IMG/VR virus record: IMGVR_UViG_3300010365_001171
Span: 21,118 to 85,117 of that record
Direction: 5' to 3' (one strand)
Origin: a virus
Lineage: Duplodnaviria; Caudoviricetes
DNA length: 64,000 nt
Shown here: one piece after another, positions 3-22,300 of the stretch
Layout of the letters: the number at the start of each line of letters is the position of its first letter
How positions within the stretch are numbered: the stretch's first letter is position 1
The notes under the pieces: model-generated
The model's database searches: none
Told to the model about the DNA's origin: nothing
Seen by the model: only the letters and a program-made list of their open reading frames with translations
Made by a program: the position numbers and the translations under genes

Positions 3-1247
3 TTTGGAGCTATTGCTTCTAAAAACAATACACTAGCTATAAAAACAAAGTTAAAAAATAAAATTTGTAATGATATCTTTTTTATAAATAGTGCTGCTGC
101 TATTAAAAATGGGTTTATAGAATCTTTTTTAGATGGTATTTTTTATGAGAAAAATGAAATTTATGATTTAAGCTCTATTAAAAAAATTAATAATGTAAAA
201 CATTTTAATTTTAAAGATAAATACAATGTATCAGATTATAAAAAAGATTATTTAAAACAAATCGAAGAAGCGAGTAACGATGTAAAGTTTAAAAATAACT
301 TTGATCTTTTAAAATTTTATCGTAAATATCTCAAAGATTTTTCTTTTGGCGTAGAATTAGAATTTTCAAATGGCTATATTAGACCTGAAGATTGTTTTTT
401 AAATAATTTTGTAGGATTACGAGACGGCTCAGTGGCTGAAACAGGATCAGAGTTAGCATCTTTACCGATTTTTGATTACAGAGGTATTCATAAAGTTAAA
501 AATATGATGGAAATCCTTGAAACTCGTACTAGTGTAGATCATACTTGTTCTACACATATCCATGTAGGCAATTTACGTACAGATAACCTATTTATTTCTA
601 ATATTTATAAAGTATTACTTAGTTTACAAAATGAGCTTTACCAAGCATTTCCTCAAACACGTAATCAAGAAGTGAACGGAAAAAGGTATTGTGCACCATT
701 ACCAAAACTAGATCTTACTTTAAACAGAGGAAATTTAAAATCTGGGTTGACTAAAAATGTTGAAAAAATATTTGCGAGTTCAAATGGTGGAAGAGGCTAT
801 GAAAAAGCCCACTCTTCTTTAGAATTAAGACAAGTTGAAAACGGGTTGTTTAAAAAAGTTTTACGAGAAACATATTACTGTAAAAAATCAAACATTTCTG
901 TTTATGATGGCATTCCTAAGTATAATATTCCAGCAAGGTACTTTATAGTTAATTTTTTTAATTTTCTACTTAAGCCTGTAAAAACAATGGAATTTAGAAT
1001 AATGGAAGGAACTTCTAGTTTTAACGCCTTTATTAATTGGGTATCATTAATTGTTGCAATAATTAAATACGCCGAAAAATTACACCCAATGAAAAACATT
1101 GATGGGTTAACTTTAAAAACAGTAATTTCTGATTATTTTGAAACAAAAGAAGCCTCAAAATTAATCACTTATTGGGAGAAAAGAAAAGAAATTTTTAAAG
1201 TAGACATTAAAAACAGTAAATTACTAAACGATTTTAAAATATATTAA
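3..1247 (+). CDS. Putative amidoligase (glutamine synthetase/COOH-NH2 ligase-like fold), 5' partial
   Basis: The frame of ORF 432..1247 is open back to position 3. The upstream part encodes FSFGVELEFSNG and LRDGSV, followed by CSTHIHVG and KTMEFR, the motif order typical of amidoligase enzymes. The GTG at 432 is therefore not the true start. Confidence 0.8.
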   Translation, partial: FGAIASKNNTLAIKTKLKNKICNDIFFINSAAAIKNGFIESFLDGIFYEKNEIYDLSSIKKINNVKHFNFKDKYNVSDYKKDYLKQIEEASNDVKFKNNFDLLKFYRKYLKDFSFGVELEFSNGYIRPEDCFLNNFVGLRDGSVAETGSELASLPIFDYRGIHKVKNMMEILETRTSVDHTCSTHIHVGNLRTDNLFISNIYKVLLSLQNELYQAFPQTRNQEVNGKRYCAPLPKLDLTLNRGNLKSGLTKNVEKIFASSNGGRGYEKAHSSLELRQVENGLFKKVLRETYYCKKSNISVYDGIPKYNIPARYFIVNFFNFLLKPVKTMEFRIMEGTSSFNAFINWVSLIVAIIKYAEKLHPMKNIDGLTLKTVISDYFETKEASKLITYWEKRKEIFKVDIKNSKLLNDFKIY

Positions 1248-1249
1248 AA

Positions 1250-2953
1250 ATGCAAAAAGAAAAATTATTTAATTTTTTTATATCTGCCAATCAAATTGAA
1301 GAGTTTGAATGGTTGAATAAAATCGGCGGTAAAAGAGTAAATACGCTTGAAGAGGCACAAGTAATACTTTTTAATGGAGGAACAGATATAAACCCTATTA
1401 TGTACGGGGAAAAACGTGGGAGATATACAAATATTTCTGATTTAAAAAGAGATAAAGAAGAAGTGGAAGATTACTTCAAAGCACAAAAACTAGGTTTAAT
1501 TTGTGTAGGTGTATGCCGTGGGTTAAATGTGGCCCACGTTAAACAGGGTGAATTCAGGGAACGCTGAAACGCCAATCCTGAGCTAAGCATTAAAAGAAAT
1601 TTTAATGAAAGTGCAACGACTAGCAGTCGAGACTAAGTTTTCAGTGTTATATCTGGAAATACGTCAGTAATACTGCCAAGAGCGCCCTGAATTTTATAAT
1701 GTTCAATTATTTTATTAATATTTTTAGAAAAATTTTGCAGTTGTAAAAAATCTGCTGCATTTTTCATAGAATTTGCTAGACGAGAAATTATCCATATATT
1801 TCCTTTAATATACCCTTTAGAGTTGTCTATCCTGTCTACAGTGGCCCTATTAAATTTATTTGAATTACCTTTTGAAGTGTAATCCAATTTGATATTTAAT
1901 AAAGGGCATACCTCAGGTAATTCAATGTCAGAGTAATGTAAATTAAAATCATCATTTATATTATTTTTATTTCTTTTAGATGAATATTTTATATTTCTTA
2001 TAATATAACCTCTTATTCTATCTAAATCACTTAAATATATATTTTGAAATAATTTATGAGGTAAATTATAAAAATTACGTAATTCACATACTCTTTGGGT
2101 ATTAATTTTTTTTCTTATAAACAAAGGATGTTTTTGTAACTTTAAAATTATATCAGGAATTTTTTGATTATTTAAATATAAATCAGTAAAAAAATTTTTA
2201 AATTCCTTATGTTCTAAAAGTTTCCTTATAACTAACGCACATGGTAAATTGCTTTGTTCTCTTATTCTTCTTACAAAATCTATATTCTTGTGGAGTTTAA
2301 GTGCAATTTCTTTATTAGTTAGTCCTTGTTTAATTAAATTTAAAATTAATAATTTCTCGTTCATTGTAATATGATTATTATGTTATATATTACAATATAA
2401 TAAAAATAATTTGAAATAACAAATATAAAATTATGATATAGTCTGACCTTATACAAAAAAAAGTATAAGAAGTAGAGGATAAAGAGCCTTTACGATAACA
2501 TTAGCACAACTTCTCACTGTTTTAAACGGTGGAAAATTAATACAACATGTTGAAAAACATAATGCTCCCCATAATTATATAGATATTTATGGCACGGATA
2601 TTCTAATACCATCTTCTCACCATCAAATGATGTTGCCAAAAGAAGATGAAAACTGTATAATAATTGGGATAGCTCCATCTAATTTTACAGGCCGTTATTT
2701 AAATGGGGATAATAAAGAAATAACATTCACAAAAAATTTTATGGAAATTGAGACTTGTTATTTTAAAAAAACAAATTCTCTCTGTATTCAAACACATCCT
2801 GATTGGTATATTGACATAGGTATTAAAATATTTGGAGGTTATTTACTTAAACTATTAAATAAAGAAGTTATCTCACCTCAGGATACTTTACAAAGAAATT
2901 ACAGAATAACAAGAAGAATTCCTATTGAACGAATACAATTAAAAAAAAACTAA
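1250..2953 (+). CDS. Class I glutamine amidotransferase / peptidase C26 family protein, intron-split (exons 1250-1523 and 2505-2953, 240 aa spliced)
   Basis: Joining the exons gives ILFNGGTDINP..YGE, then GVCRG-S-QLLTVLNGGKLIQHV, SSHHQM and QTHPDW. The spliced length is 723 nt and in frame. Confidence 0.85.
1633..2364 (-). CDS. Intron-encoded His-Me finger (HNH-like) homing endonuclease with N-terminal HTH
   Basis: C-terminal LPEVCPLL...ATVDRIDNSKGYIKGNIWIISRLANSMKN motif; N-terminal LIKQGLTNKEIALKL HTH-like segment; lies inside the intron on the opposite strand. Confidence 0.8.
   Translation of the reverse strand: MNEKLLILNLIKQGLTNKEIALKLHKNIDFVRRIREQSNLPCALVIRKLLEHKEFKNFFTDLYLNNQKIPDIILKLQKHPLFIRKKINTQRVCELRNFYNLPHKLFQNIYLSDLDRIRGYIIRNIKYSSKRNKNNINDDFNLHYSDIELPEVCPLLNIKLDYTSKGNSNKFNRATVDRIDNSKGYIKGNIWIISRLANSMKNAADFLQLQNFSKNINKIIEHYKIQGALGSITDVFPDITLKT
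2392..2423 (-). promoter_or_regulatory. Putative promoter for the antisense endonuclease (TTTG-N20-TATATTGT)
   Basis: Minus strand reads TTTG, 20 nt, TATATTGT, ending 27 nt before the ATG at 2364. Same geometry as four other sites in the window. Confidence 0.55.
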
Positions 2954-2954
2954 A

Positions 2955-3650
2955 ATGAATAAAAAAATAATAGGCATACCGGGCTGGATCTTAGGAACAA
3001 GTGGTTTTGGTGTAAAAACACCATATATAGAGTATGTCTCAAGATTTGGAATACCTTTAATTTTAACACCTCAAATGAATGAGGTTATGCCAATAGATCT
3101 CTTATTTTTACCTGGGGGTGCAGATGTAGATCCACATAGATATGGAGAAACTCCTAGTTATCTTACTGGCAATCCAAATTTAATGCTAGAGTTTTTTGAC
3201 AAAACCATGCTACAAAGATATATTGATGAAGATATTCCAATAATTGCGTGTTGTCGTGGATTACAAACCGTAGTAGCGTTGTATGGTGGTAAATTAACAC
3301 AAGACTTACCTTTTCATTCTCAGTCTGCTCATAATACTCATATAGCACATACTCTTGCATTTACAGAGGGTTATGAGTATTTGGAAAAACAAAGCCGTCA
3401 TACAAATTCTAGGCATCATCAATGTGCTGATCCAAATAATTTGCCACAAGAATTAGAAATTATTGCGTTTGCGGAAGAATTACAAGGTAAACAAGCTATC
3501 ACTGACTACAGTGTACCAGAAGTAATAATTCACAGAGAAAAGAATATATTTCTTTATCAAGGACATCTAGAAGACTTACCGGGAGAAAATTTAGGAGATT
3601 TTGTATTTGATTTATACTTGAATGGTGGTAAAATTAAAAAACAACCTTAA
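2955..3650 (+). CDS. Peptidase C26 / gamma-glutamyl hydrolase-like class I glutamine amidotransferase
   Basis: LFLPGGADVDPHRYGE, IACCRGLQ nucleophile elbow, NSRHHQ, and YQGHLE His-x-Glu. Confidence 0.88.
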   Translation: MNKKIIGIPGWILGTSGFGVKTPYIEYVSRFGIPLILTPQMNEVMPIDLLFLPGGADVDPHRYGETPSYLTGNPNLMLEFFDKTMLQRYIDEDIPIIACCRGLQTVVALYGGKLTQDLPFHSQSAHNTHIAHTLAFTEGYEYLEKQSRHTNSRHHQCADPNNLPQELEIIAFAEELQGKQAITDYSVPEVIIHREKNIFLYQGHLEDLPGENLGDFVFDLYLNGGKIKKQP

Positions 3651-4467
3651 TTTAAAGGACTTTAAATTAGGTTTTGACCCAGAGTTTTTATTATTAGATA
3701 CAAATCTAAACAGACATGTATCTGGATTAACTTATAACTTTGGGGATAAGAGTAATGGACGAGAAATTTGTCCAGACTGTACGGTTGAAAATGACATGGT
3801 AACACTAGAAATAGTGTTACCACCAGTCAATATCGAAGATGGCTTAGACAAATGTTGGGAAAACTTTTCCACCGTAAAAGATTTACTACAAAAAGAATTA
3901 CCTGAAAATATCGTAATTGATTGTTGTAGTTATGCCGAATTTACCAAAGAAGAATTAGCCACGGAGAAAGCAAGTACAGGAGGATGTTCGATAGATTTTA
4001 ATGCATGGAATAATGGAGAACCAAATAAATCTCCAAAGTTTAAAACTCCTTACAGATCATCAGGGGCCCATATACATTTTGGAATGCCTACTCTTACCTA
4101 TAAGCAAATGGTTCAAATAGTAAAGTTAACAGATCTTTTTATTACGTTACCTTTAATTTTTAATCAAAGTAATATAGAGAGAAGAAAACTTTATGGGGCA
4201 GCTGGGGCCTTTAGATGTGTAGAAGGACGAGTTGAAGCAAGATCTCCTTCTAACTGTTACTGGTCTTCAAAAGAGGGGCTAGAATGGGTGTTTAATCAAG
4301 CTAAAATTATTCTTGGTTTAGTTGACACTGAAATCATGGAAACCGTTGAGTACTACAAAGAAAAAATTATTGAGGCAATAAACTTTGATAATTTAGAGTT
4401 AGCGACAGAGTTAATGGAAATATTTAATATTAAATACGCCCCATTACCTGTTTTAGAAACAACATAA
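3622..4467 (+). CDS. phiEco32-like COOH-NH2 ligase type 2
   Basis: LGFDPEFLL start, GCSIDFNAW, RSSGAHIHFG, RRKLYGAAGAFR and VEARSPSN motifs; amidoligase/GATase neighbourhood. Confidence 0.85.
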   Translation: MVVKLKNNLNLKDFKLGFDPEFLLLDTNLNRHVSGLTYNFGDKSNGREICPDCTVENDMVTLEIVLPPVNIEDGLDKCWENFSTVKDLLQKELPENIVIDCCSYAEFTKEELATEKASTGGCSIDFNAWNNGEPNKSPKFKTPYRSSGAHIHFGMPTLTYKQMVQIVKLTDLFITLPLIFNQSNIERRKLYGAAGAFRCVEGRVEARSPSNCYWSSKEGLEWVFNQAKIILGLVDTEIMETVEYYKEKIIEAINFDNLELATELMEIFNIKYAPLPVLETT

Positions 4468-4566: not shown

Positions 4567-4953
4567 ATGGATTTTATCAAAATAAATGGCAATGTGCCCT
4601 CATCAAAAAATAGCAGAATTTTTAATTATAAATTAAAAAAATCTTTCCATTCTAAAACTACTCAAAAATTTGTAAAAAGTTCTGAGAGCGAATTCATAGA
4701 ACAAAAAGAAAAGTTTTTATCCTTAATAAAAAATAAAAGTAAACCTTTTAAAATAGGGCTACATTTTATTAGGGATTCAAAAAGAAAATGGGACTTTATA
4801 AATATGTGTCAAATTATTTTTGACTTAATGGTAAAAAATAATTGGATAGATGATGATAATACCAATGAAATAGTTCCATTTCCTGTAGAAATTGACAACG
4901 AATACTATACAGTAGATAAAAATTTAGCGGGGGTTTTAATAACTATATTATGA
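4567..4953 (+). CDS. RusA-like Holliday junction resolvase / endonuclease
   Basis: GNVPSSKNSR N-terminus and RKWDFINMCQIIFDLMVKNNWIDDDN, matching the RusA-type D-x-x-N...D...DD pattern. Confidence 0.7.
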   Translation: MDFIKINGNVPSSKNSRIFNYKLKKSFHSKTTQKFVKSSESEFIEQKEKFLSLIKNKSKPFKIGLHFIRDSKRKWDFINMCQIIFDLMVKNNWIDDDNTNEIVPFPVEIDNEYYTVDKNLAGVLITIL

Positions 4954-5681
4954 AAAATTTAGATAGAACTTTATATTACGAAGTTTCTGGTATTTATAAA
5001 ATTCAATCCCAGATTGATTCTAGATGTTATATAGGCTCAAGTAAAAATTTATATAAAAGAATAAACTCTCATATTAATGAATTAATTAATAAAAAACATC
5101 CTAATAGTAAATTACAAAATTTTATTAATAAGTATGGTATAGAGTGTTTAAATGTAGAAGTATTAATTTCAAACGTAGAATTATCTGATATTTATAAATT
5201 AGAAACTATTAAAATAAAAGAATATAAAGCTTTTGAAGAGGGATTTAATTTACAAGAAGAGGCAATACCTATTAAAGGGCGGCCATTAACAAGCGAACAC
5301 AAAGAAAAAATAAAAGCTACGCACATTAAAAATAAAGATAAAAATTTACCTATATATTTAAAAAATTTAAATTTAGCTAGAAAACAAGTTAAGTTAAATA
5401 ATGAAATTTTAAAACTAGTAGGTAAAAAAAGACAGGCCCCAAACAAAGGTATAAAGGCTTCAGACGAAACTAGATTTAAACAAAGAATGGTAAAATTAGG
5501 AAAACCGTCTTTAAAAAAAATCAAAGTAAATTGTTTATATAAAGATGGCACTTTTTACAAAACATATGACTCTATACAAGAGGCTGCAAATGCTTCTGGA
5601 GCAAACGTGCCTAATATATGTGCGGTATGTAAAAATAAAAGAAAATCAACAGCTGGCTTTTTATGGGCATACTGTGTATAA
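4950..5681 (+). CDS. Free-standing GIY-YIG homing endonuclease with NUMOD3/NUMOD1-like DNA-binding repeats
   Basis: SGIYKI...CYIGSS..L.KR...H; LTSEHKEKI and SDETRFKQR repeats; C-terminal YDSIQEAA...NICAVCKNKRKSTAGFLW. Confidence 0.88.
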   Translation: MKNLDRTLYYEVSGIYKIQSQIDSRCYIGSSKNLYKRINSHINELINKKHPNSKLQNFINKYGIECLNVEVLISNVELSDIYKLETIKIKEYKAFEEGFNLQEEAIPIKGRPLTSEHKEKIKATHIKNKDKNLPIYLKNLNLARKQVKLNNEILKLVGKKRQAPNKGIKASDETRFKQRMVKLGKPSLKKIKVNCLYKDGTFYKTYDSIQEAANASGANVPNICAVCKNKRKSTAGFLWAYCV

Positions 5682-6653: not shown

Positions 6654-9575
6654 TGTTTTTAGATTCTAAAAACTATGAAAGCTTAAAAAGGGATATGTTT
6701 AACGACATATCCCTTTTAACTTTTATACCATTAGATATAGAAACAACAGGTTTAAATTGTTGGTTTCATAAACCTTTGTTACTGATAATAAAAGGAGATA
6801 AACAAACATGGGTTTTAGATCTTAGAACAATTCCTAAAAAACAAATCTCTTCGTTATTAAAATATATTGGTACTGAAAAAACAATAGTAGGACATAACTT
6901 AAAGTTTGACTGTAAATTTCTAACATATCATTACAATGTAAAATTTAAAAGCGTTTTTTGTACCTATGTAAACAGCAGATTAATTTGGAATGGTATAAAA
7001 AGTAAAAAATACTCATTAAAATATTTAACTGAATTTTATATAGGAGAAATTTTAGATAAAGAAGTTAGAAACTCTTTTATAAACAAACCTGATGACTCTC
7101 CATTCACTGAAGAAGAGATAGTTTATGCTGAGGGAGATGTAAAATATTTGCTAGACATAAAACTTAAAATAGAAGAGTGCCTAGTAAAATATAATATGGA
7201 GTTTTTATCTGAATTAGAAAATAAGTTTTTACTTTGTCTTGTACAAATGGAATTAGAAGGTGTAAAAATAGATCATGAAAAATGGACTAAAAATATACAG
7301 GATTGGGAAGCAGAGCGTTTAAATATGATATCTAATTTAGATAAAGAATTATTTAATTTGTCTAAAAAATTTAAAGCTCTTTCTTATGCTTCTTTTGACG
7401 TAAAGGTAGACGAAGACCGTTTAAAGGTAACACAGAAAAATTTATTTTTTGACGATACAATTATAGACATTGAAAAAAAAGCTAGAATAAATTGGTCTTC
7501 CCCAACTCAAATTAAACAAATAGCTTATTATTGTCAGATTTTTCTAGACAGTACAGGAGAGGATGCCTTATTAGAGTATAATAAAAAAAACATAGGGAAT
7601 CCTTTAGAACACCTATTTGAATTATTAGTTGGAGATGGAAATAAAGTAAAAGGTCTTAGACAAATTGAAAAATTACTTTCTACTTATGGAGAAACATTTT
7701 TTAAAATTGAAAATAGTATTACTGGAAAAATTCACACCAGTTTTAGTCAAGTAAATACTGAAACAGGTAGACTTAGTTCAGGAGATACTAAATCTGATGG
7801 TAAAAAAATGAATTGGGGAGTTAACCTTCAAAATATTCCGGCCGATAATAAAATTAGAAACTGCTTTATCCCTGATGAAGGTTATTTATTTTGTAGTTCA
7901 GATTTAAGTGGTAAAAATAAAAATTGATAGTATCAAAAATATTTCATATATTGAAATAAAAGGATACTATGTACGAATTGCATCAAGACATTAAAAATTT
8001 ATACGAATCAGGTTTATATCCTGTTGATATAGCTAAAAAACTAAACAAACATTTAACTTCTGTTAAAAGAATTTTAATTAAATATTATAAAGAATTACGA
8101 GTTGAATCTAAAAGTTCAATAAATAATATTTTATTTGAAAATCTGAAAAATAGAGATGTTAATTATTTTTTAGGCTTATTAGCTACTGATGGTTGTATAG
8201 TTAATTCACGTATAACTTTATCTTTACATGAAAAAGATTTAGATATAATTGTTAAGTACAAAGATTTTTTAAAAACAAAAAATAAAATAGCTTATCAAAA
8301 ACATACTAAATTCAATTCAACACAAGTAAGAATAAGTGTTAGAAATAAAACTGTAACACAAAGATTAATTTCTTATGGTATTACAAGTAAAAAAAGTGAA
8401 ACATTATGTTTGAGTATTCCAATAACATGGGATATGTTTAGAGGGTTTGTTGATGGAGATGGATCAATTTCAGGTATTAATAAAAATAAAGGTTGTAGAA
8501 TTCAAATAGCTACAATTTCCGAAAAGTTTAAAGATCAAATCCAAGAATTTTTAAAATTAAATAAAATTGATTTTAAAACGTACAAATCTAAAAATATTTA
8601 TCAAATAACTATACATAAAGACTCAGAAGTATTAAAATGTTTTGATAACATGTACAAAGACACTGAAACTTATATAAAAAGAAAGTTTCATAGCGCCACA
8701 CTTTATAGAAATATATTGGAAAATAAACCACTTAAATTCAGGGAAAACGTGTCGACAACCCTGAGCGAAATCTATTGACCTTTAAGGTAAATTAAACAAA
8801 TAGAGACGTGCAGAGACTATAATAGTGGGGACTTAACCATTTTATGGAAAGTTCAAGGGATAGTCCAAATAGAATAAAACTATAGGCAGAGATACGTGTA
8901 GCAGCTTCTGATTCACAAGAATCAGTATTAATTAAAGGATTTTCAGAAGGATTAGATTTCCATAGTGTATTAGCACAGGTATCTTTTAGAATTATTTTAA
9001 ACGACCCCGATTTAATTGTTACCAGCGAAATAAATAAACAATATAGAACAGCCCATAAAGCTGTCTTATTTGGTTATATTTACGGCGGCGGACCACAAAG
9101 AATTAGCCAAATTTTAAATATTCCGATAGAAACAGCAAAGCTAGTATATATGCAACTTAAAAAAACATTACCAACTTTAGACCGTTATTTAACTGATAGT
9201 GCAAAATTTGCAACAAAAAATTATTACATAAATGGGTCAAAAAGAACAAATAGAAGAAGATGGTTTTCTGACTTTTTTGAAGGTAAGATGGAGGCGCATG
9301 AGGTAGAAAGACAAGCTAAAAATATGCCTGTGCAAGCAACCAATGCAGATATGATTAAAGAAGCAATTATAGAAGTTATAGAATATTTTGAATCAATAGG
9401 AAATATTGCTAAACTTTTATTCACTGTACATGATGAATTAGATTTTGTTATACCAATAGGAAGGCAAGACATTGCAGAAAATGTAAAAAATATTATGGAG
9501 AACGTAGGAAATAAATATTTAACAAATGTAAAAATGGTTTCAGATTTAACAATAGACACATGCTGGAAGAAATAA
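6653..9575 (+). CDS. polA: DNA polymerase family A with 3'-5' exonuclease, intron-split (exons 6653-7912 and 8886-9575, 649 aa spliced)
   Basis: Exonuclease motifs LDIETTG, GHNLKFD and YAEGDV; TETGRLSS; NLQNIP. Spliced motif A reads SDLSG-AEIRVAA, motif B RTAHKAVLFGYIYG, motif C TVHDEL. Confidence 0.93.
7923..7954 (+). promoter_or_regulatory. Putative internal promoter for the intron ORF (ATTG-N20-TATATTGA)
   Basis: ATTG 7923-7926, 20 nt, TATATTGA 7947-7954, 14 nt before the ATG at 7969. Confidence 0.5.
7969..8778 (+). CDS. Intron-encoded LAGLIDADG homing endonuclease with N-terminal HTH
   Basis: Two LAGLIDADG-like helices, YFLGLLATDGCI and MFRGFVDGDGSI; N-terminal IKNLYESGLYPVDIAKKL. Confidence 0.88.
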   Translation: MYELHQDIKNLYESGLYPVDIAKKLNKHLTSVKRILIKYYKELRVESKSSINNILFENLKNRDVNYFLGLLATDGCIVNSRITLSLHEKDLDIIVKYKDFLKTKNKIAYQKHTKFNSTQVRISVRNKTVTQRLISYGITSKKSETLCLSIPITWDMFRGFVDGDGSISGINKNKGCRIQIATISEKFKDQIQEFLKLNKIDFKTYKSKNIYQITIHKDSEVLKCFDNMYKDTETYIKRKFHSATLYRNILENKPLKFRENVSTTLSEIY

Positions 9576-19348: not shown

Positions 19349-22300
19349 TTATAAATTCCTTTGTGCGTAATCAAATCCTTTGATTAATTCATGTGGATGG
19401 AATGTATTGCCAGAAATACCTATAATTTTTAATAAGTCTCCTAATACTTTAGGTGCGTCTGGGTCAAAGAATCCTTTTCCTTGTTTTAGATAAGCATTTT
19501 CTTCCCCTGTTAATAACCCAATTGTGTGCTTAACCAAGTTAGAAGTATTTCTATAATGCATACTATAAGCTACTGAAGGAGTTGTTAAAGTTTTACTAAT
19601 TTCATTAGCCCCAAGAACAGGCATAAATTGTTCTGTTTCAGAACGGGCTCTTTTAGCTAAATAAATAGCATGAAGTAAAAAGAAATTAGCATCCTTATCA
19701 GGTTCTCCATCACCATCTCCATCAGCTAAAGCTGTAAGAGCAGATGATATGATATATATACATAAGATCATTAGTATCTCAGCCGCAGCTCTTTTTAAAT
19801 TAGCTTTTTGTAATGGTGTTTGTGATGTCCACCAATTTTTTGGATTTGTTAAACGTTCTTTACCTGTAACTACATTAAAAAGCTCTTTAATAACAGAATT
19901 ATAGAAAGTAATATAAAAACCTTCTGTATAAGTATCACGCATTATATTAGCACGTAAACCTGAAAATCTTTTAGCAAATAATGGAACAAAAAACTTTCTA
20001 AAGAAAAAGGCCATTCTACCAACTGAATACCTTTCAACCATAGCTTGATTTAGCTTTGAATAATTACCATGAAGCCCTTCGTTTATACTCTGAATTTTAT
20101 TTATTAAATTAACTTCAGAATCTTGGGTATATTCCATTGTTTTAGAAAATGTTCCTCCATCATTTAACACATAGCTAACATCTCCTTCAGCAAATTCCAT
20201 TAGGCCTGTAACTTTAAAATTTTCTTCGTAAGCAGCTAATAAATTAGTAGTCTTACCTTTATAAGTCACAATTCTTGTTTTTAACATTCCTAACATAGTA
20301 GATATCTGTACTTCGTGCTCTCCTAAATGTCTTAAATAATTTGCAGGGCTATTTTGTACAATTTCTCTTAACGCAGTTCTTTTAAATCCTTCCTCTATGC
20401 TTTCCGAATATTCCCCTGTTATTGGGTCAAATAATGCAACTAATTTAGATATAAAAGACTTATTACCAGATTTAGTAAAATCTTTCATAAAATCTTTCGC
20501 ATAATTTAAATAAGCCGCTTCACCAATTTTCCACGTTTTATAATTAAAAAATTCATCTGACATAGATTCAATAGTAATTTGAATTCTAGCAGATACCCAG
20601 TTTACAACTGCACTAGGTATATTATAACTTAATGAAGTAAAAGCAGCAAAACCATTGACATTATCTACAAATTTAGAAAATACCCTGTTTTCTCCTCGCT
20701 TTTTATACTCTTTATAAATTTGTGTTAATATAAGTGCTTCTACTTGTTGTGCTCTATAATTTGTGTCGCCTTTAACAAACTTTTGAGATGTTAAAGTTAA
20801 CCCCCTAACTAAAGAATTTTGTTTAGCAGACTCTGGAGTATTTTCATTTAAAATTTTAGATATAGATTTAAAAGTAGGCAAAGATTTTTGAATTTCATTG
20901 GATTGAGCGACATCATATAAATAACCTGTAATATTCCCAAATACATCTAAAGATTGATCCTCCTCTGTTAACTTATTATTATATTTAACAGGTACAAATT
21001 GAAAAGGTTCACCGGATAATTCCGCTAATCCATAACCATTATCTTTATCTGACGCTGCAAATTTAAATCTATTTTTTGTATATGACCATATTTTTTGTCC
21101 CTTTTCTTTTATACTTCCTGAATTAAGAAGAGCTTCATTTAATTCTTGTTCCTTTCCACCTAAAAAATACCCTAATCTATTTTGAATAGTAGTTGTTTTT
21201 TGACTATTTAAATAATATTCTGTTAATTCACCTAAAAGTTTTTTTACTTCTGGATTAGTAGAAGCATTAGAATTTTTCCATTTAGACTCTTTTGGTAAAT
21301 AACTCTTTAAAGTTTCATCATATACAGACTTGTCATTTTTATAACTGTCTTTAATTTCTCTTGTTTTACTGTATTTATAATTTGGCGTGTTAATAATGTC
21401 TTCTTGCTTTTTAGGTCTAGTAACTGTCCAAATTGTAATCGGTTTACTAACTACTTTATATCCTTTGGAACGGTCGTCCCAAACAGTTTTATTATAATGA
21501 TTATCTAAATACCAAGAGCTATTTTTAAAGTTTTCTTCTACTTTTTTATTAAATTCTTCATCAGTCTCTCCTGTGTTTCTTACGGTACTCTGTTCAACTT
21601 CAAATTTTTTATTAGCAGAAACTTCTTCATAATAGGTTGTATTTACGGTTTCTTGTAATTTGTCAAGTTCTTTTATTAATTCAAAAATTTCTTTTTTATT
21701 TCCATTAGCACTAGAATTTTGTATTTTTAAATCAATACGTTTAAAATTTTCAAAATCTTCTGGAGTCATTTCTCCTTTTAATTGTGCGTCATCTATTCCT
21801 ATTCTATCTACCCAATAGGCCGGCAAACCATATTTTTGTATAATTTTATTAAATAATACTTTTTCATTCGTTGAAACTTCCCCATCATCTAAACGCAAAG
21901 TTTCCAATTCTTCTTGTATTTCTTTAATTTTAGCCGCCTGCGCTTCTGTATAAAGATCTCCTATAATCTGGTTTTGATCATCTTTTGCTTGTCTAGATCC
22001 CCTTAAAGTGGCTAAATCAAGTCTTAATTGTTCAACACGAGCAGCTTTTTTACTAGAAAGCTCTGCTAACCTATTATAAATTCTAGTTCTTTCTTCTATA
22101 AAAGAATCAGTATAAGAAGCTAAACTATTTTTTTGATGCCAAACAGATAGTTGAAATTTATAATCTTCCTCATTAATAAGTCCATCTGAAAGACGCTGTG
22201 AAAGAATGCTTTCAAAAACACTTCTATTTTTCTCCCATTTTGCGGCACCTTCTAGGTTATCTACGTTATCATTAAACAAGCCATTAACCTTTTCTCTATA

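Follow-up and report, generated by a model that had tools for sequence, protein, structure and literature searches.

A Peptidase_C26 gene in viral DNA (Duplodnaviria; Caudoviricetes) was found to be interrupted by what we read, with a probability of about 0.8, as a mobile group I intron that carries an endonuclease gene, antisense to the ribozyme, in the terminal loop of P8, the tail of the encoded protein being dictated by the RNA core. All coordinates refer to the window, i.e., the whole stretch of 64,000 nt that was analyzed (IMGVR_UViG_3300010365_001171, positions 21,118 to 85,117). The ribozyme lies on the plus strand and the reading frame on the minus strand, and the same register between frame and core was observed in metagenomic phage contigs for 22 distinct full-length ORFs.

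Insertion site and ribozyme core of the intron

The insertion point of the intron is the catalytic Cys elbow of the amidotransferase gene (Table 1). Exon 1 ends in ..GVCRG plus one base of the following codon, and the predicted splicing joins the exons as CRG-S-Q, where intron-less relatives read GICRG(S/N/A)QLL. The terminal G of the intron, followed by C(A/U)CA(A/G), was kept in all of the loci in which exon 2 could be located. Another 3' splice site, G2494, had been considered from the similarity to the other intron of this genome and was dropped, since the frame of that other intron forces a splice site about 10 nt further on and only G2504 gives both the CxGxQ motif and P10.

Pairing was examined at 39 pairs over 32 distinct intron cores. 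In this comparison 94.9% of the cells were paired, versus 77.9% in shuffles and 37-45% when the partner strand was slid, and compensatory changes were found at 26 of the 39 pairs. The ribozyme core is thus intact and evolves through compensatory changes. Twenty distinct exon/guide combinations were observed in P1 (CGUGGGU/GCCCACG, AGAGGGU/GCCCUCU, AGAGGAU/GUCCUCU, and CGAGGGU/GCUCUCG among them), and the compensatory changes in this helix track the synonymous Arg and Gly codons of the exon. The helices of the P4-P5-P6-P6a domain (1554..1612) were 97.9%, 100%, and 84% paired, with compensatory changes at 14 of 17 pairs. The P7 5' strand was invariant across the 32 sequences and is therefore uninformative for covariation.

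An extra paired arm between the P7 5' strand and the P3 3' strand is a trait of subgroup IA, and such an arm is present at 1623-1676. Its outer stem, inner stem, and hairpin were all 100% paired, with compensatory changes at 4/5, 1/3, and 1/4 pairs, respectively. P8 also covaries: a helix of 5-16 bp and of differing sequence was found in the loci in which both strands were located (at least 7 bp in all save three), L018 and L027 having been mis-located in this comparison owing to an adjacent second intron. The segment 2424..2443, comprising the P8 3' strand, J8/7, and the P7 3' strand, was 85-87% identical to introns of Staphylococcus, Bacillus, and Clostridium phages. In run X9, possibly an RNA library, coverage fell mainly on the 3' motif at 2447-2503, which is widely shared, and stemmed from introns of other organisms; the four runs compared with the window gave no information on strand or expression.

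Table 1. Positions in the window of the exons, the intron core, and the antisense gene.
Feature	Position	Strand	Evidence or remark
Exon 1, Peptidase_C26 / class I glutamine amidotransferase gene	1250..1523	+	PF07722 E 1.7e-7; phrog_7218
Group I intron, 981 nt	1524..2504	+	P7.1-type extension (IA-like); RF00028 E 4.3e-9; covariation
P1	exon CGUGGGU 1517-1523 / guide GCCCACG 1532-1538	+	U1523-G1532 at the 5' splice site
P10	UGUG 1528-1531 / exon 2 CACA 2505-2508	+	
P3	1544-1550 (CAGGGUG) / 1683-1689 (CGCCCUG)	+	99.1% paired; compensatory at 4/7 pairs
P4	1554-1559/1576-1581	+	
P6	1582-1584/1610-1612	+	
P6a	1588-1595/1600-1607	+	
P7	GACUA 1618-1622 / UAGUC 2439-2443	+	Aligned to GACUA of the RF00028 model
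P7.1 arm	1623..1676	+	Outer stem 1623-1627/1672-1676; inner 1631-1633/1663-1665; hairpin 1638-1644/1653-1659
P8	1691-1698 (AUUUUAUA) / 2424-2431	+	
J8/7	2432-2438	+	
P9 hairpin	2448-2454/2463-2469	+	
Second hairpin	2472-2478/2487-2493	+	Loop AUAAAGAG
Terminal G	2504	+	
Homing-endonuclease-like ORF, 243 aa	1633..2364	-	PHROG profiles; in the P8 loop
TAnnTTTG match TATATTTG	2420..2427	-	63 nt before the ATG; 4-nt overlap with the P8 3' strand
Sigma-70-like site TTGTTA-17-TATATT	2394..2422	-	9/12 positions match
Exon 2, amidotransferase gene, (..S)QLLTVLNGGKLIQHV...	2505..2953	+	phrog_7218 2.2e-12; intron-less relatives

The endonuclease-like gene, its relatives, and its proposed promoter

The first-pass annotation had placed an endonuclease reading frame antisense inside the P8 loop, and the position of this minus-strand ORF against the plus-strand RF00028 match bears this out. 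The predicted protein consists of HTH domains (residues 1 to about 100), an EndoVII/HNH-like region (about 110-221), and a clade-specific tail (222-243). It matched the profiles phrog_3322 (1.1e-19), phrog_1035 (endonuclease VII; 7.9e-11), and phrog_3118 (HNH; 4.7e-10). At the N-terminus, a weak match to HTH_23/GerE was obtained, and VIA aligned residues 1-51 with HTH domains (Z 5-6) but produced no clear hit for the nuclease domain, its list being taken up by the N-terminal HTH. Pfam and NCBIfam held no nuclease family matching the protein, and a sequence search of the PDB with the family profile returned HTH matches only. The best Foldseek match for the nuclease domain was the PacI HNH enzyme, a weak one (E 0.41, probability 0.57), and the AlphaFold model of this domain alone was poor (pLDDT 63.7). 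A total of 191 homologues of the ORF were found, the window's own protein excluded. In the family alignment of 27 sequences (42-54% identity), D177, N189, and N198 were invariant. The motif DRID stands at the place of the EndoVII motif, DHDH.

The antisense ORF lay between two C26 exons in all nine of the homologue contigs, and a DNA pattern search yielded 31 further loci. When relatives were searched for in viral contigs by means of the endonuclease, one weak relative (L004) was found. Eight of the nine IMG/VR relatives were intron-less at the C26 site. Furthermore, one contig of run X6 lacked exactly 981 nt; the sequence across its junction (GG|AG CACAA) points to DNA of an intron-less allele more than to spliced RNA. 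The ORF was decayed in L030 and L044, and decay or loss was observed among these two loci and L020, L022, L029, and L033. Intron-less, ORF-less, and ORF-bearing forms hence coexist.

These data bear on two other explanations of the locus. The amidotransferase might be split into two separately translated pieces by a free-standing endonuclease gene, with no intron involved, an arrangement known from mobE and nrdA in Aeromonas phage Aeh1. The RF00028 match (1487-1757, plus strand), obtained by E-value threshold, indeed scored 42.3 bits, under the Rfam gathering score of 50, and a scan of the whole window at this gathering threshold gave no hit. Nevertheless, the covariance model cannot span the 725-nt P8 insert, and the ORF-less relatives reached 50.0-61.4 bits, at or above the gathering score. 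A split would moreover part CRG from QLL inside one helix, and a start codon is absent from the exon 2 junction; together with the full covarying core, the pairing of P1 and P10 with the exons, and the conserved terminal G, this makes the split gene extremely unlikely. It is a good deal easier to imagine, though still doubtful, that the endonuclease copy in the window is already inactive, in an early stage of decay within a homing cycle, and that the intron persists by vertical descent and self-splicing only. The protein carries R at residue 173 and N at residue 132, positions occupied by H and R, respectively, in each of the 26 full-length homologues, and relatives show the ORF decay and loss described above. 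On the other side, all 243 codons stand in an intact frame, the window's protein departs from conserved columns six times where the other members do so 0-8 times, and the H173 column is filled by S in more distant relatives, so that H173 may not be catalytic.

The gene had also been credited with a promoter-like site of its own, the sigma-70-like site. This site did not hold up, because such sites were as frequent in the region (14) as in shuffles (12.5 +/- 3.1), i.e., at chance. A different box, TAnnTTTG, does support a promoter in the family: it was found in 14 of 24 distinct ORF-upstream regions, compared with 1.73 +/- 1.24 in shuffles and 0/24 on the opposite strand. In the window the box stands unusually far from the ATG. 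TAnnTTTG is a Bacteroidota-type box. The intron lineage occurs in phage-like metagenome contigs, and the upstream box suggests Bacteroidota hosts; nevertheless, TAnnTTTG was not enriched before ORFs genome-wide (4%, versus 7% in the reverse-complement control), and the host is therefore not named with confidence. The endonuclease ORF was the only minus-strand ORF of at least 150 aa within a 19-kb plus-strand block, and no terminator-like site was present on either strand between 1200 and 3000. The endonuclease gene would be transcribed from this conserved box in the P8 loop. Since the endonuclease is encoded opposite to the ribozyme strand, ribosomes would never cross the ribozyme, and the conflict between translation and splicing known from T4 td/I-TevI would give way to possible head-on transcription and to pairing of sense with antisense RNA.

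Overlap of the protein tail with the ribozyme core

The 66 nt that encode Y223 to T243 and the stop (1633-1698) are complementary to the P8 5' strand, J3/8, the P3 3' strand, and the entire P7.1 arm. The P8 5' strand corresponds to Y223-K224 and part of I225, the P3 3' strand to Q226-G227 and the last base of the A228 codon, and the P7.1 arm to codons G230-T243 and the stop codon. The assignment of the C-terminal codons to the P7 extension and the P3 3' strand in the first-pass annotation was thus confirmed, GCCCUG at 1684-1689 included, and it extends to the 22 distinct ORFs. The stop codon is read from the complement of a conserved CUA in the core, which belongs to GACUAAG in the window and to the P7 strand GACUAG in most relatives. 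Two core positions serve as stop registers, in 15 and 9 loci, the 15 using the CUA of the P7 5' strand, and the extreme C-terminus is read in two frames (..KLSLDS and ..LKT before the stop).

The tail sequence QGALGSITDVF was almost invariant, and the identity at third codon positions was higher in the tail (0.72) than in the best-conserved nuclease block (0.61). The bases at 1618-1698 were conserved to a mean of 0.87 in ORF-less or decayed introns versus 0.82 in ORF-bearing ones, with the same consensus in 71 of 81 columns; those ORF-less introns that sit at the C26 site may have lost the ORF recently by deletion and are hence a weaker independent control. The ORF-less intron L018, which resides in an unrelated gene, retains the CGAGACUAAGUUU..AAAUAUGUCAGUAA motif. 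The end of the free-standing relative S-CBS4 gp060 aligned to about residue 221 of the window protein, without the tail. At covarying pairs S231 is replaced by N, D, I, or K, with the pairing preserved. Because the bases are equally conserved without the ORF, the free-standing relatives are shorter by about 20 residues, and two stop frames occur, the tail is best read as "core creep" on the antisense strand. The overlap would have arisen as the ORF extended to the next available stop, and the tail peptide would be conserved as a side effect of selection acting on the RNA. The dual constraint that had been proposed for these bases hence stands for the RNA, through covariation, and is not supported for the protein, given the equal conservation in ORF-less introns, the two end frames, and the variable S231.

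Under true dual coding, the 20-residue tail would have a job in the endonuclease, for instance in DNA contact or folding, and selection would act on the same bases both as protein and as catalytic RNA. The invariance of I232, T233, D234, F236, and K242 in the 27 sequences could be taken in this sense, as could the four base changes in the ITDVF codons, three synonymous and one V to I; the tail was also modeled with moderate confidence (pLDDT 69-79) and a short helix at 232-235, compatible with a structural role. Yet the bases are conserved as well where no ORF is present, even in the intron of another gene, the tail is absent from relatives outside introns, the terminus is read in two frames, and residue 231 is free to vary where the RNA pair covaries, which makes dual coding quite improbable. 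Antisense regulation, with a putative endonuclease mRNA that pairs with P7.1-P3-P8 of the pre-mRNA, lowers splicing, and so couples the endonuclease to the output of the amidotransferase, had been raised in the first-pass annotation and appears improbable. The conserved promoter box in the P8 loop, the absence of terminator-like sites on both strands, and the isolation of the ORF in its plus-strand block are in its favor, and interference has been discussed for nuclear antisense endonuclease genes (PMC9548176); the overlap, however, is explicable without any regulatory role. The complementarity of the endonuclease mRNA to the ribozyme would reach further if the transcript were unterminated. 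A function of the overlap in both ways at once, in which the endonuclease needs its tail and the putative mRNA from the P8 promoter is a built-in antisense RNA against the ribozyme core, was considered very improbable.

Comparison with described introns

The antisense core creep proposed here has its nearest published counterparts in T4 td/I-TevI, B. thuringiensis nrdF, and the Synechococcus lividus LSU intron, described under the name core creep by Edgell et al. 2011 (PMC3073962). In both settings an ORF in a peripheral loop runs into core helices until the next stop; the 66-nt overlap lies inside the published range (9-81 nt), and the length of the extension depends on the lineage, as that hypothesis predicts. 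In the listed cases, however, the ORF is on the ribozyme strand and one RNA is both translated and folded, whereas here it is on the complementary strand, frame and core overlap only as DNA, and conserved core bases, read in complement, supply the stop. With the ORF on the minus and the ribozyme on the plus strand, the intron is therefore a variant, and not a member, of the described cases.

Antisense genes of the His-Cys box family are known from nuclear rDNA group I introns, namely Dir.S956-2/I-DirII of Didymium iridis and Dsq.L2066/I-DsqI of D. squamulosum (PMC9548176; PMC3073962). They share with the window an endonuclease gene on the opposite strand of a group I intron, with its own promoter (a predicted one in the window), and antisense interference has been raised as a question. 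They differ in being eukaryotic, of group IE, and equipped with Pol II promoters, polyadenylation, and spliceosomal introns, and their gene resides in a peripheral insertion (a P9.2 segment in Dsq.L2066), whereas the window holds an IA-like phage intron with an EndoVII/HNH-like nuclease gene in P8. For Didymium, we found no C-terminus written in the core described in these papers. HNH genes in P8, in the sense orientation, have been described in the DNA polymerase intron of Bacillus phage SPO1 (I-HmuI) and in cyanophage Pf-WMP3 (I-PfoP3I; PMC3428280), the SPO1 ORF overlapping P8 by 9 nt (Table 1 of PMC3073962). These are likewise IA-type introns (IA-like in the window) that interrupt a conserved catalytic motif of a phage gene and hold the gene of an HNH-type nuclease (EndoVII/HNH-like in the window) in the P8 loop, but differ from the present intron in orientation, HNH subfamily, and host gene. 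In our literature search no antisense endonuclease gene was found described in a bacterial or phage group I intron, and such genes are not mentioned in reviews of bacterial introns (PMC3984707) and of the mobile elements of T4 (PMC2988022). An Oedogonium chloroplast paper returned by this search was set aside as irrelevant.

The overlap between an endonuclease ORF and a ribozyme core has so far been discussed only for same-strand cases, in which translation and folding compete on one molecule, as in T4 td/I-TevI. The intron family described here represents the opposite solution, in which the gene is turned round and the complement of a catalytic RNA dictates how the protein ends. With at least 22 natural variants, RNA covariation and amino-acid change can be compared, and the family offers a clean natural case of a peptide segment made and frozen by constraint on the opposite strand, as well as a test bed for the effect of antisense transcription on self-splicing in bacteria. 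If the two-sided function were true, the intron would balance its own spread against the expression of the host gene through sense/antisense pairing, and this would be a mode of regulation undescribed for bacterial or phage group I introns.

The intron and the antisense gene within the C26 gene

The source record of the window is an 85-kb IMG/VR virus from activated sludge (29% G+C, estimated completeness 70%). One C26 gene of its ligase cluster was split in two exons, and the sole long ORF in the gap between them (243 aa, 2364->1633) was on the minus strand, being the only minus-strand ORF of at least 150 aa within the first 19 kb of the window. The Rfam group I model matched the plus strand between the exons (1487-1757, 42.3 bits, E 4.3e-9). 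It fell short of the gathering score, since a 725-nt insert in P8 is too long for the model to span; the same intron lacking the ORF reached 50-61 bits in relatives. The intron map was drawn by hand and then checked against relatives.

Features of the split C26 gene, the ribozyme core and the antisense ORF in the window
Feature	Position	Strand	Description
Amidoligase / C26 amidotransferase / COOH-NH2 ligase cluster	3-4467	+	Includes the split C26 gene
C26 exon 1	1250-1523	+	Last residues encoded ..GVCRG
5' splice site	after U1523	+	P1: exon CGUGGGU pairs with GCCCACG 1532-1538
P10	1528-1531	+	UGUG pairs with exon 2 CACA
P3	1544-1550/1683-1689	+	Mapped by hand, checked on relatives
P4	1554-1559/1576-1581	+	Same
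P6 and P6a		+	Same
P7	1618-1622/2439-2443	+	Same
P7.1 arm, three stems	1623-1676	+	Same
P8	1691-1698/2424-2431	+	Same
3' hairpins, two		+	Same
Intron 3' end	G2504	+	Final base, hand map
C26 exon 2	2505-2953	+	Continues QLLTVLNGGKLIQHV
Y223-I225 codons		-	Complement of P8-5'
Q226-A228 codons		-	Complement of P3-3'
G230-S231 codons		-	Complement of outer P7.1 stem
D234 codon		-	Complement of inner P7.1 stem
F236-T243 codons		-	Complement of P7.1 hairpin
Stop codon	1633-1635	-	Includes C1633 of inner stem
R173 and N132 codons	1846-1848 and 1969-1971	-	Departures at invariant columns (H173R, R132N)
TAnnTTTG match	2427->2420	-	63 nt upstream of ATG; overlaps P8 3' strand

The guide covaried with synonymous Arg and Gly codons of the exon (20 distinct exon/guide combinations); a comparable exon/guide pairing occurs at the 5' splice site of T4 td. 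The predicted spliced product, CRG-S-Q, agreed with eight intron-less relatives, reading GICRG(S/N/A)QLL. Exactly 981 nt were absent from a 321-nt contig of one public run, whose library type is unrecorded, and the letters at its junction point more to an allele without the intron (CRG-A-Q) than to spliced RNA.

Among 32 distinct sequences, the pairing of 39 named pairs was 94.9%, compared with 77.9% in column shuffles and 37-45% when the partner was slid, and both-sided changes were observed in 26 of them. P8 was a helix of 5-16 bp, varying in sequence between loci and of at least 7 bp in all but three, as compared in loci with both strands located; in the related loci L018 and L027 it was mis-located owing to a neighbouring second intron.

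The last 70 nt of the intron (2430-2501: J8/7, P7 3' strand and P9 hairpins) showed 85-87% identity to sequences that lack annotation in phages of Staphylococcus, Bacillus, Clostridium and Clostridioides; in Staphylococcus phage PMBT8, for instance, the match is in a split tape-measure gene. The ligase cluster was followed, after 500 nt, by a free-standing ORF of GIY-YIG type (243 aa, 4950-5681), and a GIY-YIG gene also adjoined the intron copy of a related locus, L009.

Conservation of the C-terminal tail

The first-pass annotation had described the end of the ORF as the complement of the ribozyme core, and this was correct: with residue n placed at 1636+3(243-n), the overlap was 66 nt, that is, 21 codons and the stop. 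The tail QGALGSITDVF was the best-conserved stretch apart from the nuclease motif, with I232, T233, D234 and F236 invariant in the protein alignment despite 42-54% overall identity.

The tail bases were kept at the same site in ORF-less (L020, L022, L029) and decayed (L030, L044) introns, and also in L018, where an intron without an ORF lies in an unrelated gene of higher GC content. Conservation of 1618-1698 was 0.87 in introns lacking an intact ORF, ORF-less and decayed together, versus 0.82 in ORF-bearing ones, the two consensuses being identical in 71 of 81 columns. A free-standing relative in Synechococcus phage S-CBS4 ended at about window residue 221, and a crAss-like phage relative, in sense orientation within a split DNA polymerase gene, had a different C-terminus. 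At covarying stem pairs S231 was replaced by N, D, I or K with the pairing retained, and identity at third codon positions was 0.72 for the tail, above the 0.61 of the best-conserved nuclease block. These four comparisons point to the RNA as the cause of tail conservation. The tail may nevertheless have a role in the protein: its AlphaFold pLDDT was 69-79, and of four base changes seen in the ITDVF codons three were synonymous. The earlier proposal of a double constraint on the core bases was supported on its RNA side, through covariation, but not on its protein side, the bases being kept equally without the ORF.

The simplest account of the tail is an antisense form of "core creep" (PMC3073962): the ORF would have been extended until the core complement supplied a stop, and the tail peptide would have been frozen afterwards by the RNA.

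In the sense-oriented crAss-like relative (CrAssphage cr116_1, NC_055882; L046:1-2075), the nuclease domain was 53% identical over 78 residues and was flanked by two fragments annotated as DNA polymerase I, a split that is probably an unannotated intron.

The endonuclease family and its promoter

The window protein had 191 metagenomic homologues, its own entry not counted. N-terminal HTH domains were followed by an EndoVII/HNH-like domain, the latter matched by PHROG profiles only. The antisense ORF lay between two C26 exons in all nine homologue contigs fetched, and a DNA pattern drawn from P7/P7.1 yielded 31 further loci. The distinct full-length antisense ORFs numbered 22. Their stop fell within the sequence complementary to P7 strand GACUAG at 15 loci (tail ..KLSLDS*) and 13 nt earlier, as in the window, at nine (..LKT*). 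At another locus (L005:2000-3400), the intron and antisense ORF interrupted the C26 gene at a point 10 nt nearer its 5' end (..GUAGGGAU / intron / AUGUCGUGGGUUUCAG..), preceding the Cys-Arg-Gly codons, unlike the window's insertion point, which follows them.

The window copy carried R173 and N132, the latter followed by a 4-residue insertion, where 26 of 26 aligned homologues had H and R. Judged from these two invariant columns the copy may be dead, but the H173 column is occupied by S in relatives at greater distance, which speaks against a firm reading. ORF decay and loss were seen in relatives, as expected from a homing cycle.

A sigma-70-like promoter had been proposed for the ORF, but the site matched at 9 of 12 positions, a level reached by chance in the region. 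Instead, TAnnTTTG, known as the -7 box of Bacteroidota promoters, was present no more than 70 nt ahead of the ATG in 14 of the 24 upstream regions compared, which were distinct and had diverged elsewhere (1.73 +/- 1.24 expected from shuffles), and in 0 of 24 on the opposite strand. Its spacing to the ATG was usually 28-45 nt. This motif supports a predicted promoter of its own for the antisense ORF family, and a minus-strand RNA, if made, may act on splicing. No terminator-like site was found 3' of the ORF in a scan of the region.

Other introns and known systems

Some 7 kb ahead of the window start, the same genome carried another group I intron (L002:650-1797; RF00028, 50.8 bits), which interrupted a DnaB-like helicase gene, held a LAGLIDADG-type sense ORF (301 aa) in its 5' part and had the 3' end motif ..GGAUAAAGAGCC.UUACGAUAA.. 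in common with the window's intron. L018 (500-1186) and L027 contained two group I introns close to each other, scoring 104.7 and 61.4 bits, in a gene of higher GC content, the weaker having the P7.1 motif of the window's intron without an ORF. Window 7913-8885 gave no Rfam match at the gathering threshold.

Endonuclease ORFs that overlap core helices have been described in sense orientation (PMC3073962, Table 1), whereas the window's ORF is antisense. Antisense endonuclease genes are known from myxomycete nuclear rDNA introns (PMC9548176), and HNH genes in P8 from phage introns (SPO1). Neither antisense nor opposite orientation is mentioned in a review of group I introns in bacteria (PMC3984707), and our literature searches found no antisense endonuclease gene in a phage group I intron. 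What this analysis adds is the register of the tail peptide against the ribozyme core, the family-wide conservation of this register, and the evidence pointing to the RNA as its driver.
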